From assembly GCA_907165135.1 (NCBI GenBank), contig OU015566.1, forward strand, positions 4,030,001 to 4,094,000: a stretch of 64,000 nt of DNA, in the 5' to 3' direction. The DNA comes from Oikopleura dioica (Eukaryota; Animalia; Chordata). Positions within the stretch are counted from its first letter, which is position 1; each line of letters starts with the position of its first letter. Under the pieces are notes generated by a model. The model did no database searches. It saw only the letters and a list, made by a program, of their open reading frames with translations, and was not told the DNA's origin. A program made the translations under genes and the position numbers. This document shows positions 26,883 through 41,608 of the stretch, piece after piece.

Positions 26883-26930
26883 TTCGTATTATAATCACGC
26901 ACAAATAACAATGGTAATGGGAATATTCCC
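26883..26930. repeat. Terminal repeat B2 (48 bp)
   Basis: Identical to 27319-27366; ends in the 12-bp palindrome gggaatattccc. Confidence 0.97.
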
Positions 26931-27055
26931 GAGCACGCGCAATTACAATACTGTGGTAGAGAAAGAGCCTTTCTAAGGTAATGGACTGGGCAGTATGTAG
27001 GGCGTGTGCTCGTTTTACCCTACATGTACTGCTTATTTCAGGGATGGTGGGCGGG

Positions 27056-27321
27056 AGAGTCTTTTTGATTCAGCTAGGAGTCTTATTGGTAATGCTTCTG
27101 CTGAGAAAAAGGCTCGATTTAAAATTCCTCGTTTTAGGTTTTAGCTGTAGGCTAAGAACCTTTCGAATGAACCTGCGTGATTCCGGGGCACCCGCTCGAA
27201 ACCAGGTGCTCTCGGGCGCCTTTGACACCTTCCGCCGCCTCCTGGGAATCCCTGCCTCTGGTTACTAGGCTTCCTGCCGCGTTCTATTTCTAGCGGGCTG
27301 CTAATCCCTTGTCCTAGATTC
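27056..27321. repeat. Internal repeat A2 (266 bp)
   Basis: 264/266 identical to 41343-41608 by manual comparison. Confidence 0.97.
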
Positions 27322-27366
27322 GTATTATAATCACGCACAAATAACAATGGTAATGGGAATATTCCC
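27319..27366. repeat. Internal repeat B1 (48 bp), overlapping A2 by TTC
   Basis: Identical to B2; the A2/B1 junction equals the right end joined to the left end. Confidence 0.97.
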
Positions 27367-37455: not shown

Positions 37456-37901
37456 GCGCTCTATTTCGTGAGTCAACTTTGCAACTTTCCCACGGTCTCC
37501 AATTTGGATTTTATGCTATTTTGATTCAAATCTTTAGATTCTTGAGACCATTTCCTGATTCTTGTGCTCTTTCGGATCTTTTTTGTGGAGATTGGTGGTG
37601 GAGGTGGTGCGCAATTCGAGGAAAAAGTGTTTTTCTCTCGTAAGACTCTTTTTCTGTGATTTTTGCTAATTGAAAGTGAAGTAGATTCTTTTTGCGTGAG
37701 AATTTATCAGATTTAGCGAGTCTTTTCCTGAGGTTGAAGATTCTTGAGCTTGTTTGCGGCAGAAAAGGGGGGGTTTTGGGCGATTTTTGAGTCTTTTCGA
37801 GGGCTCCGAGTCTCTTTTTTTTTCACTTTTTCTTTGGAAATTTCTGATTCTTTTGGGCCCTTTTCCTGACTGTATTTTGGTGAAGTTTTTGGAGTCGTTT
37901 T

Positions 37902-40856
37902 CTAGTCGCTTCCCGTGGCTTCAGCGACATTCAGACGAGCGAATCGTTCTTCGATGTTTTGGCGGTCTTGAGACCAGACGTTCGGGAAGAGATTCTCGAC
38001 TTTGGCTTCCTCTCCGTGGTCTAGGTCAAGATTCTCCGCTGCCTTGATTCCGTCGAGGATTATGTCCCTGATGTGGGTCGTGAACGGTGCGTCTGGGGCT
38101 AGAATGTGGGTTTTGGCCGTCACATTCTCCCAGGTTGTTCGATTGGCTCTTATTTTGAGCTTGTCTATTTTCGAGACTGCTCGGTTTTTAGCGTCGAAGC
38201 CGTTGCAGCATCTGACCATGGTTTCCGCCACCCTGGGGTGTGCCCAACACGGGGTAAATGCAGATTCGTAGTCCCCATCGCAGGCCATTTGGAAGATTTC
38301 CCAGAGTCCCGAGATTCTTGGGTTTTTGTCCCCTTGGAGTGTTCGATGAAGATTCTTCGTTGGGCCCTGGGTGACGAATTTAACGTAGGGTGCCGACCAG
38401 GTGACGAGAGCTTCTCTGAGTTTTTTGGCGTCTTTTTGTGAAGGGAGAATCAGCACTGTGTTTTTCTGGCATGTGAGTTCGCTGATAATTTTCGCCACTT
38501 CCATCCATTTGTCTCCAGATTTTTTGGAGATAGAATCCGCCAGTCTCGGGAGATGTTGATTCTTTCTGGTTGAGGTGTTCCCAACTACGAAAGCGTCGAA
38601 TTTTCCTCCGCATCTTTCTAGCCCTGCGTGGTAGATGACTATTCCAGCTGCTCCCGGATTCTCGAATCGTGGTCTTTTTAAGACTCTTCCGAACTTCCGG
38701 AGGCTTTCGCTGAGGTTCGCTGCTGTGTCGTTTTCTCCCTGAAAAAGGATTGCCGTGGATTTCCAAGCGTTTACGAGAGAGTCGAATCCTTCGATTACGC
38801 TGGTCTGGATTCTCTGGATGAGGTCTTCGCCAGCGTCCTTTAGCATAGTCGTTTTGAAAGATTCGGAGAGTTTGTAGAAGGTTTCTTGCCATTCCTCGCT
38901 GTCGATGGACATTTTTGTGCCCTGGGGGAGTCCTTTCTGTATGAAGCCGTTTGCGACTCGGCATTTCTCTGAGCAGTCTGGTTGGCGAGATTCTTTGAGT
39001 TCTTGGAATCCTTGATGTGTTTTACACCAAGTCGTGCTCGCTTCCGCTTCCCCACACATTGGCCATTCGCACGATCTTTCTCTCTTTTCTGGTTGTTCTC
39101 GAAGGAATCTGAGTCTCGTGACTCCCGTGACTTCTTCTCTTTTCTGCATCCAGGTGTCGATGAAGTTGTCCAGAGTCTTGTTCGGGCTGAATCTTTTGCC
39201 ATTTGCCCAGTTCCAGCCAGTTGATAAGATTCCGAGGTTATGCTCAAGTGAGCGCAAGTGAGAATGGGCTTTTGTGTCTCTTACAACCTTGGCGATGATT
39301 TCCAGGATGATCTTCTGAGTTCGAAAGGGGCGGTTGACTCCGACTAAGCAGGCTCCTGAGGCGTAGAAGTTTCTTGTTGGCTTCTGGAACGCCGAGATGC
39401 ATTCTTTGACGTTTTGGGTGGTCCAAGGTTTGGAGGCTAGCTTCTCGAGCGCCTCTGATTCTAACGGCGTGAGCGCTGGGTGGGCTGCAAGGGAGAGGAG
39501 GGATTTCGCTTTGATAAAATCAGAGTCCTCGCCGTAGTTGAAAACCCATATTTGAGGTACGACTTTGTAAGGAATCCACAGGATCCAGTGGGAATCCCCT
39601 TTTCCAACTTCTTTGACTCTAACCGTGGTATTAATCGGGTTAACTTTTTTCGCCGCTGACTCCAGCCACTTTTTGAGGGACCGGGAATCCTTGAGTTCGC
39701 TCCAGTCCACGTGCCATTGGGTGGGCATTTCCTTGCAGCTTCCGTCTTGACCAATGACTGAGTCTTGGATGAGCTGTTTTTGCACCAGGTGGAGCAGCAG
39801 TGGTGAGAGAATCTTTGTTAAGGGAGTCGGATTCGGAATGGGTGAGTCTTCCGATGCATATTCGCCGATTATGTCGATGATCCATGCGTTCACATTCGCC
39901 GGTTTTTTGTTCGCCCATTGGGTATCCTCGTTTGCTTTGAGTTCTAGCCAGGCATTTTTCTGATGGCAAATCTCATGCCAGTCGCTGTGGAGAGACTTCA
40001 GCATCTTGAGCGAGTCCAGTAGTTCTTCTGGCGTAATAAAAGCATCTGACCTTGGCATTGCGTCGAAAATCGTTTCAAGACCTTTCTTTATGAGTCTTCG
40101 GAGCCAATTGTCGTCCGTGAAGCTTGGGCGTTCGTAATTTGCCTGGGTCTTGATTTTGCTCTCACCGATTACTCGGAGGCACACGAAATGCCAGAATCCC
40201 TCGTTCAGGATATCTTGATTTTCTAGGTCTTCCCACTCGCGGAACCAATCTTGGCTCTTGATTTTTGCCCATTTGTTGAGCTCCTCCGAGATGTTGTTCG
40301 GAAAGAGTCTGCTTTTCTCCATCGCGCTTTGGGATTCCGAGTTACGCTGAGAGTCTAGCCTCCTGGCCACGATTCTTATTGGTCCTTTTTCTATTTTCAG
40401 GGCTTCGAGTAGATTGGAGATGGTTTCGCATTCGTCCAGCTTGACGCTTGGGTCCTCAGTCGTGCCCGCTGAGTCTGCTTTTAGAAGCTTCGTGGGGCTC
40501 TCCATTGGCTTAAATGGATATGGCTTTGATTCGAGTTGCCAAGAATCCGCGAGGTCGGTTTCTGCTTCTGCAATTTCGTCTGCGATGATGGAGAGTATGA
40601 AACCAGGCTCGTTGCTCCTGTGAGCGACCCAGAGTGATTCTTTTCCTGATGGCGCCGTGAAAATGATCTGGGCCCACGAGGAGAGCTCTGCGAAATTGAA
40701 TCTCGCTTTTGAGGGAGTCTGCAGATCGAACATCAGCCTGTGATTCGAGAGAGGCTCGTTTGCATCCGAGGGGACATAAAGTCTGACGAGTCTCGTGGCA
40801 ATCTTTTGCTCCGCCATTGCAGTGCGAGAAATTCTTCTCCAATTTATCTGACTCAT
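37902..40856 (-). CDS. 984-aa intronless cargo ORF with a C-x4-C-x9-C-x2-H motif
   Basis: Uninterrupted 2955-nt ORF inside the element; CEWPMCGEAEASTTWCKTH at 39071-39015; no family confidently recognised. Confidence 0.85.
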   Translation of the reverse strand: MSQINWRRISRTAMAEQKIATRLVRLYVPSDANEPLSNHRLMFDLQTPSKARFNFAELSSWAQIIFTAPSGKESLWVAHRSNEPGFILSIIADEIAEAETDLADSWQLESKPYPFKPMESPTKLLKADSAGTTEDPSVKLDECETISNLLEALKIEKGPIRIVARRLDSQRNSESQSAMEKSRLFPNNISEELNKWAKIKSQDWFREWEDLENQDILNEGFWHFVCLRVIGESKIKTQANYERPSFTDDNWLRRLIKKGLETIFDAMPRSDAFITPEELLDSLKMLKSLHSDWHEICHQKNAWLELKANEDTQWANKKPANVNAWIIDIIGEYASEDSPIPNPTPLTKILSPLLLHLVQKQLIQDSVIGQDGSCKEMPTQWHVDWSELKDSRSLKKWLESAAKKVNPINTTVRVKEVGKGDSHWILWIPYKVVPQIWVFNYGEDSDFIKAKSLLSLAAHPALTPLESEALEKLASKPWTTQNVKECISAFQKPTRNFYASGACLVGVNRPFRTQKIILEIIAKVVRDTKAHSHLRSLEHNLGILSTGWNWANGKRFSPNKTLDNFIDTWMQKREEVTGVTRLRFLREQPEKRERSCEWPMCGEAEASTTWCKTHQGFQELKESRQPDCSEKCRVANGFIQKGLPQGTKMSIDSEEWQETFYKLSESFKTTMLKDAGEDLIQRIQTSVIEGFDSLVNAWKSTAILFQGENDTAANLSESLRKFGRVLKRPRFENPGAAGIVIYHAGLERCGGKFDAFVVGNTSTRKNQHLPRLADSISKKSGDKWMEVAKIISELTCQKNTVLILPSQKDAKKLREALVTWSAPYVKFVTQGPTKNLHRTLQGDKNPRISGLWEIFQMACDGDYESAFTPCWAHPRVAETMVRCCNGFDAKNRAVSKIDKLKIRANRTTWENVTAKTHILAPDAPFTTHIRDIILDGIKAAENLDLDHGEEAKVENLFPNVWSQDRQNIEERFARLNVAEATGSD

Positions 40857-41342
40857 TAAGAGCAGAGTGTTTCTTTAAATGGATCAAAACCTATCCTAAA
40901 TTTGGAAGGTGTTCGGGGTAGCCCGTTCCTAAAAGATTCTGAGGAGAAGAGATCCTTTCCTGGAGATTTCCTCATTGAGGGTTTGGAGTCTTCTTTGGGA
41001 GTTCTCGATTGGGCGTGTTGGATCCGAGTCCAAAGCCACTCCCCATTTGGGGCCGAATTCCAGAGCTGCCTTGACGAAGGCCTCCTCGATCATGTCTAAA
41101 TGAGAGGGTCAGCAAGTCTAGGGCTTCGAGGAAGAAACAGGAATTCCGAATTTCTAAGAAGAGGGTTTCTCTGAATCTAAGAAGCCTGAAGCTGATTGGC
41201 TCGGCTCGGCGCGCCGCTGCGGCCGCTTACTGAGTAAGAATCCCAGAGCCTTCGAGGCGTAATTGCCTGAGGCTGAATGATTTTATAGTCCGTGGACTTT
41301 TAGAGGTGAAATAAGCAGGTAGCATCGATTGATGGTCTACCT

Positions 41343-41608
41343 AGAGTCTTTTTGATTCAGCTAGGAGTCTTATTGGTAATGCTTCTGCTGAGAAATAGGC
41401 TCTATTTAAAATTCCTCGTTTTAGGTTTTAGCTGTAGGCTAAGAACCTTTCGAATGAACCTGCGTGATTCCGGGGCACCCGCTCGAAACCAGGTGCTCTC
41501 GGGCGCCTTTGACACCTTCCGCCGCCTCCTGGGAATCCCTGCCTCTGGTTACTAGGCTTCCTGCCGCGTTCTATTTCTAGCGGGCTGCTAATCCCTTGTC
41601 CTAGATTC
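41343..41608. repeat. Terminal repeat A1 (266 bp)
   Basis: Matches A2 except aaatagg/aaaaagg and ctctatt/ctcgatt. Confidence 0.97.

Follow-up and report, generated by a model that had tools for sequence, protein, structure and literature searches.

Three open reading frames (ORFs) are the rule for tyrosine recombinase (YR) retrotransposons of the DIRS order (PMC6681497, PMC3266345), and DIRS1-like elements stay under 6 kb (PMC3266345). PAT-like elements combine split repeats with a methyltransferase (MT) domain, Ngaro elements lack the MT domain, and DIRS1-like elements carry inverted repeats (PMC4157794, PMC3266345, PMC6681497, PMC13465315). Here we describe a 14.7-kb element on the minus strand of a 64,000-nt stretch of Oikopleura dioica contig OU015566.1, hereafter the window, whose positions serve as coordinates throughout. 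The element is PAT-like by structure and shares with PAT, SpPat1, TOC3 and kangaroo the split repeats, a pol gene encoding reverse transcriptase (RT), RNase H (RH) and MT, a downstream YR gene on the same strand and the absence of a target duplication. It differs from them in its length, its six genes, about 21 introns, trans-splicing, a gene between pol and YR and the lack of a CCHC zinc finger; Kangaroo-1 of Volvox is about 10.6 kb long. We think it probable that this is a recently inserted and transcribed YR retrotransposon that likely reverse-transcribes an unspliced full-length RNA and makes its proteins from spliced leader-tagged messages. The conserved introns and the trans-splicing are its most unusual features.

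Copies of the element were reached through gene models, read contigs of sequencing runs and four metagenome loci. Runs X1, X5 and X6 are DNA; X3 and X4 were taken as RNA because their contigs show GT-AG and GA-AG joints and spliced leaders, and the raw RNA runs X9 and X10 yielded 0 and 2 reads. Run evidence consists of assembled contigs mapped to the window, and joint counts refer to the joints listed.

The element forms a GC-richer, strand-skewed block bounded by two repeat pairs. Read on the minus strand it runs A1, genes, B1, A2, a 125-nt spacer and B2 (Table 1), and its ends and repeat identities bear out the DIRS-order element delimited in a first-pass annotation of this locus. One X1 DNA contig carries the empty allele, in which five letters lie between 26876 and 41606. 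The insertion is polymorphic, and because the empty allele lacks all of the element, the whole 14,726 bp arrived as one unit; the same allele rules out that the 5′ genes belong to the host and were caught between a small element and a solo repeat. Comparison with the rebuilt joint of the empty allele reveals no target-site duplication, and TTC is common to the empty site, both element ends and the internal B1/A2 joint. Such an outcome is left when a tyrosine recombinase crosses a circle junction into its target, the established model (PMC5240408). In one further case, an X5 loose end places the end of A1 at another site that also starts TTC-TTCT.

The spacer folds more stably than its shuffles (z −3.1), and its positions 27029-27040 provide 12 nt complementary to 41307-41318 directly behind A1, a match that 0 of 300 shuffles reach. 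Duplex energy does not support long-range pairing of the RNA ends, as 212 of 300 shuffles equal it. Over 27056-27320 and 41343-41608, DNA-run contigs with diverged A-like sequence are deeper than the interior, and loose ends occur in the spacer in X1 and X5; solo repeats, non-autonomous derivatives or other subfamilies are possible readings. A loose end of an X3 contig connects 26975 with 27136, in keeping with a plus-strand GT-AG intron at 26978-27137 (window 26960-27137), and possibly reflects a spliced antisense transcript across the spacer and A2.

The RT/RNase H, the tyrosine recombinase and the integration without target duplication at a shared short core are those of the DIRS order. We assign the element to the PAT-like group because it has split direct repeats (A1...B1-A2-B2, with B1 behind YR also in the divergent metagenome locus L002) and an MT domain, which lies behind RNase H. 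The closest described layout is that of echinoderm-form Pat1 or Toc3, where the internal repeats lie behind YR (PMC4157794); the CCHC motif of a Pat1-like Gag is missing here. Ngaro elements have the same repeat layout and gag-pol-YR order, with about 6 kb and three ORFs (PMC8547959), but lack the MT-like domain that our element has. The kangaroo layout differs as well, since YR is co-oriented in our element and the repeats lie behind YR rather than between MT and YR.

Four O. dioica sequences in two families, with RT, MT and YR, have been reported as DIRS1-like (PMC3266345), and 519 DIRS regions have been counted on the O. dioica Y (PMC5240408). These recorded elements probably are, and may well be, the family described here; our element differs from the DIRS1-like reports in having split direct repeats and no inverted repeats or internal complementary region. 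Of the 45 inverted pairs listed, none of the 25 longest falls within the element, which also has no 11-nt complement to A. The word 'intron' is absent from the available text of PMC3266345, PMC3783388, PMC6681497 and PMC4157794, and a literature search that did not cover Repbase, Dfam, Volff 2004 or Denoeud 2010 returned no giant, intron-rich or trans-spliced Oikopleura YR retrotransposon. The undescribed lineage proposed in the first-pass annotation therefore survives as an architecture for which the searched literature holds no description, whereas DIRS elements as such are already on record for this species. The gene order, which had also been called unusual, is usual in its gag-pol-YR core and departs from it in gene E, between pol and YR. 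SymbioDIRS-Dnmt3 is likewise a split-repeat YR element with an acquired domain; its cargo is one domain within pol and its genes are intron-less, whereas our element has three separate intron-bearing genes (PMC5890265).

Six genes, named A, BC, D, pol, E and YR, occupy the element, all on the minus strand. The 984-codon ORF seen at first stands as such and is preceded by a 45-codon first exon and an 87-nt intron, which together make up gene A. The coiled-coil gene and the 149-aa ORF, previously taken as two genes, are fused into a single frame by the joint 34849-34930 and form gene BC. An ORF given as at least 403 aa is present as gene D, which is longer, sits in the gag position and overlaps the start of pol; one X3 contig runs from D into the 5′ part of pol with no joint. 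The earlier count of about five cargo ORFs was thus too high, as there are four non-enzymatic genes, three of them extra and one in the gag position. The co-orientation of the genes and the identity of RT-RH-MT, of the 384-aa gene with an RG-rich tail and of YR were correctly recognised. The introns of pol, E, YR and the non-coding stretch, together with the addition of spliced leaders, are new to the present analysis.

After intron removal A, BC, D, E and YR are all open. In the window copy, the pol frame is broken twice by single bases, near 32463 and near 30407, each time in a short homopolymer run. Both breaks are read through in X1 and X3 contigs and in the gene model chr2.g3998, and may be assembly errors or real lesions. 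A candidate frame break in YR near 28355 was rejected, being a 43-nt intron; the X3 contig covering YR ends at 27337, inside B1. The non-coding stretch at 37115-37901 has no long frame after splicing.

In total the element has 21 introns with a median of 68 nt and a summed length of 1543 nt. At least 13 joints are listed for X3, five of which recur in a further listing, three of these five also in X4. Loose ends back two more introns (31800; 36397 and 36463), and contigs that stop at a predicted exon edge back another two (30657, 33941). The remaining four (36792-36867, 34522-34570, 29506-29561 and 29200-29250) are predicted from sequence, the last two occurring also in a relative. Splice sites are GT-AG in 11 introns, GA-AG in eight and GC-AG in one, and one intron (37339-37419) has a CC donor in the window copy. 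Of the 11 introns in the 5′ half (34522-40959) eight are GA-AG, against none of the nine in pol, E and YR (Fisher p 0.0014, with the grouping made post hoc). According to a review, GA-AG introns are enriched among new O. dioica introns, and their excess in the 5′ half hints at later intron gain there, including the four non-coding introns.

The element is transcribed, and the host spliceosome removes its introns, as shown by the joints in X3 and X4. A spliced leader is joined at 28656 (YR; X3 and X4) and near 41097 (A; X3), a few bases ahead of the respective start codons. Reverse-complemented, the loose ends at 28656 and 41097 are the 3′ part of the 40-nt O. dioica leader (10.1101/353979). 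One X3 contig runs from the leader through A and the four spliced non-coding introns towards BC; this two-gene contig shows read-through and is not proof of a single transcript. In O. dioica a quarter of genes lie in operons and 39% are trans-spliced (PMC5240408), and because operons and trans-splicing are so common in this animal, operon-like expression of the element is the simplest reading. CCAAT-like and TATA-like boxes can be seen by eye on the minus strand at about 41200-41290, upstream of A, and at 37340-37460, upstream of BC, and BC may have its own promoter. Between E and YR, an X3 contig steps back 72 bases (28742-28813), either because another copy has this segment duplicated in tandem or because an RNA was back-joined.

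Elements that copy themselves through RNA normally lose their introns. In L002, the three E introns and three aligned YR introns occupy the codon and phase that they have in the window (6/6), and the fourth YR intron and the two pol introns match in place by eye (in L002, and for the first pol donor in L003). At least nine introns thus keep their place in a relative with saturated synonymous sites (pS 0.71-0.77; dS about 2.2 to undefined), and the intron sequences themselves differ between the two. By rough Nei-Gojobori estimates, dN to L002 is 0.26 for the RT core, 0.48 for YR and 0.64 for E, and the part of D compared with L003 gives dN 0.54 and dS 2.3. Constraint is strongest on RT, as would be expected of a part in use. 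All listed joints have depth 0 in DNA (5/5 each in X1 and X6, 13/13 in X5), and long DNA contigs run straight across the introns. Copying from spliced messages would lose the introns at the first cycle, so the template would have to be unspliced RNA, or the element would have to move as DNA. The nearest functional analogues are Penelope-like elements that retain introns, above all the giant multi-ORF Terminons of bdelloid rotifers, with several co-oriented ORFs and spliceosomal introns that survive copying. They differ in their unrelated RT clade, the lack of a tyrosine recombinase and their direction to telomeres, whereas our element integrates internally at a trinucleotide.

If the template is unspliced RNA, transcription would proceed across the genes in the manner of a host operon, with trans-splicing cutting the product into single-gene messages. 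A fraction of transcripts would escape both cis- and trans-splicing and become the genome, on which RT and RNase H would use the A and B repeats to produce a cDNA with a B/A junction. YR would then cross this junction into a chromosomal TTC. The most speculative steps concern the remaining proteins: D would form a Gag shell, the RG-tailed E might bind and shield the unspliced genome in a Rev-like or nucleocapsid role, and A and BC could be accessory factors, BC being partly dispensable in cis.

Movement as DNA would need no unspliced RNA genome: YR could excise and re-insert the element, or copy a circle, at TTC in a Crypton-like manner. This would explain the retained introns without cost, the precise empty allele fits excision as well as a site that was never occupied, and YR is intact and transcribed. 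We nevertheless regard it as unlikely and favour the unspliced RNA, because RT is strongly constrained and the paired repeats are identical. RT-RNase H is the most conserved protein, with a low dN against saturated dS. A1/A2 and B1/B2 agree at 99-100%, whereas divergence from copies in other individuals amounts to a few percent, as it would if each round of reverse transcription renewed the repeats. The several dispersed, near-identical loci also speak against the DNA route.

Gene model chr1.g1079 of the O. dioica OKI2018_I69 assembly matches 95% of the RT-region query at 100% identity. Near-identical models elsewhere in that assembly are chr2.g3998 (D fused to pol), YSR.g17118/g17117 (first BC exons, D and the start of pol) and chrUn_4.g17236 and g17237 (gene A). 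A second subfamily, with 86% identity in pol, 75% in D and 57% in a C-terminal piece of A, comprises chr1.g884 (A), g886 (D) and g887 (pol) as well as PAR.g12199 and g12203, and a third type of D (57-61% identity) occurs on XSR, chr1 and PAR. Tiled contigs of DNA runs X5 and X6 reproduce the order of the element at a few percent divergence, and a 5722-nt X6 contig runs from pol through D into BC. The CBY-series proteins of another assembly, presumably North Atlantic O. dioica, include two pol types at about 60-66% identity and two A types of 1004-1069 aa, and the model CBY07384 fuses pol to the RG tail of E. Among the metagenome loci, L002 carries pol, E, YR and B1 in order, L003 carries D then pol, and L001 and L004 carry pol alone; the E homologue of L002 is 41% identical. 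In a tree of 18 fetched relatives, which included no DIRS, PAT or Ngaro references, the Oikopleura-type rows group at 94/97. More distant pol relatives (P0014-P0022, 29-43% identity) come from marine-type metagenome assemblies, three of them with an MT-like xFPP/xYPP motif. These data support the conclusion that the extra genes belong to the family and are carried by other individuals, other loci and divergent relatives. A one-off capture of host genes is rejected, as the extra genes recur across copies, and the copies reached include none of 5-7 kb without the extra ORFs, which would have refuted the first-pass annotation.

The transposing core might still be an ordinary-sized, intron-bearing D-pol-E-YR element, to which A and BC were added later in some subfamilies as a passenger block with no role in transposition. 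The confinement of GA-AG introns to the 5′ half fits this idea. So does a 979-bp deletion in BC (34433-35411, 850 coding bases lost) found in X1, X5 and X6, which may mark a common derivative or one shared allele, and so do the CBY-series A homologues, which lie on other scaffolds than the RT models found, leaving A-pol adjacency unsupported in that lineage. We consider it quite improbable in view of the empty allele, which removes all 14.7 kb together, and of the A homologues themselves, which remain full-length although identity over 1000 aligned residues is down to about 25%. Moreover, two A types match two RT types in the CBY-series assembly, and the second-subfamily A piece is two gene numbers away from D. 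An HMMER search of 1.84 billion representative proteins gave 16 matches to A, one of them a spurious repeat; the named ones among the 10 of 16 looked up are O. dioica or hypothetical metagenome proteins, with no host or non-element homologue. Identity among the homologues of A spans 24-100%. A word-indexed protein search with ORF A was blank and is uninformative, since HMMER gave 16 matches.

In the pol protein, RT matches Pfam RVT_1 (E 9e-9 in the window, up to 2e-14 in relatives), has YLDD and is of the Gypsy-related RT/RNase H type. RNase H motifs are present with a weak profile match (E 0.11-0.15). The MT motif YAFPP occurs behind RNase H in 5/5 full-length close relatives, and in P0030 the MT-like domain matches Pfam Dam at E 0.022, short of the curated cut-off. 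The YR catalytic set (R..K..HxxR..H/W..Y) is complete, with R139, K170, H240-R243, H262/W266 and Y275-276, and is conserved in L002; single YR exons give weak integrase-profile matches (Pfam E 0.028, PHROG E 0.002). A, BC, D and E have no above-cut-off match in Pfam, PHROGs or PDB sequences, and no CCHC zinc finger pattern occurs in them or in four homologues. A match between the A profile and a collagen-adhesin (E 2e-4) involves a Trp/Gln-rich stretch and was not counted as homologous. BC has an acidic linker, a long charged coiled-coil-like stretch and a globular-looking C-terminus. D yields an all-helical model (pLDDT 65) and ends in a C-terminal KRKR; it is likely Gag because of its position, upstream of pol and overlapping its start, an overlap found also in L003. 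E combines a helical N-terminus with a basic RG-rich tail that is kept in L002 and CBY07384, and its net charge of +15 together with the conserved tail suggests that it is likely RNA-binding.

Fold searches with A (pLDDT 47, a model too poor for searching) and D found nothing at E 0.001, the best Z for D being 7.4 to generic helical bundles; both are weak tests, and the blanks do not show new folds. An Atlas search with P0043 and P0064 gave no usable match. The virus-like character proposed earlier, as an endogenous virus with an extracellular stage and envelope or capsid genes, could be read from the size, the gene number, the arginine/glycine-rich tail and the env reported in O. dioica Tor elements. 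It is very improbable given that A, BC, D and E contain no transmembrane or signal-like segment (highest 19-residue hydropathy ≤1.26) and no envelope or capsid signal, that they match no PHROG, that the fold searches with A and D gave no viral fold, and that pol has no relative in IMG/VR.

Several observations weigh against a retrotransposon copied from unspliced RNA with all six genes as its own. No unspliced full-length RNA, cDNA or circle was seen among the assembled contigs mapped, and contigs drop rare variants, so that a rare intron-less copy beyond the listed joints is possible. Leaders were found on two of the six genes (A and YR) among the rows listed. D as Gag has neither family nor fold support. 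The window copy is the one locus read whole, and linkage in the second subfamily comes from gene numbering; BC was traced in near-identical copies only, and the BC deletion and the separate CBY-series scaffolds belong here too. We still consider the retrotransposon reading probable. A wider proposal, which we hold tentatively and with more doubt than confidence, is that the element represents an undescribed larvacean lineage of giant operon-like YR retrotransposons that resolve their messages by spliced-leader trans-splicing and kept their introns through deep divergence. Accessory proteins (E, perhaps A or BC) would keep the full-length RNA from the spliceosome, convergent with retroviral Rev-type control.

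Table 1 Features of the element in the window.
Feature	Position	Strand	Remarks
Whole element, 14,726 bp	26883..41608	minus	Both ends inside TTC (plus strand) common to the target
Repeat A1 (5′ end)	41343..41608	minus	264/266 identical to A2
Gene A, 1034 aa	37902..41093	minus	Exons 41093-40960, 40872-37902; joint in X3; open frame after splicing
Non-coding stretch, A to BC	37115..37901	minus	Four introns: 37793-37865, 37635-37727, 37485-37554, 37339-37419; joints in X3
Gene BC, 709 aa, 7 exons	34343..37114	minus	Three joints and one loose-end pair in X3; two introns predicted from sequence; open frame
Gene D, 456 aa	32629..34073	minus	Overlaps pol start in another frame; open after splicing
pol: RT, RNase H, N6-adenine methyltransferase-like domain	30243..32876	minus	Introns 31799-31841, 30605-30656; start codon uncertain
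Gene E, 384 aa, 3 introns	28831..30139	minus	Joint 29867-29915; L002 homologue has the same three intron positions
Tyrosine recombinase (YR), 331 aa, 4 introns	27480..28649	minus	1168-nt X3 contig with four GT-AG joints and leader
Repeat B1	27319..27366	minus	Contains palindrome GGGAATATTCCC; kept in divergent relative L002
Repeat A2	27056..27318 (A alignment 27056-27321)	minus	B1/A2 joint agrees with the predicted circle junction
Spacer, 125 nt	26931..27055	minus	Between A2 and B2
Repeat B2 (3′ end)	26883..26930	minus	48/48 identical to B1

Outside the element, pieces of host genes were read by motif: an actin-related protein (3771-4412), a kringle and trypsin-like protease (15348-17227), a leucine-rich repeat protein (51848-52546), a zinc transporter (60085-60729) and a short-chain dehydrogenase (61286-61792). 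Several short inverted-repeat element families occupy 900-26100 and 42000-62300 (one has its arms at 16229-16309 and 16392-16472), and a CTCAG-rich array lies at 25600-26000; these families and the array are very deep in the DNA runs.

The usual picture of YR retrotransposons is one of compact three-ORF elements, and the element described here is polymorphic, expressed and over twice the usual size. Current O. dioica annotations break such elements up into what look like ordinary 'host' gene models, and a pipeline that takes 5-kb flanks misses the element ends. In a species used as a model of intron gain and loss, the element combines a core with old GT-AG introns and a 5′ half with GA-AG introns. 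It makes it possible to test in a cultured chordate which RNA serves as the reverse transcription template of a split-repeat element and how this RNA avoids being spliced, and also what accessory genes contribute to a retrotransposon.

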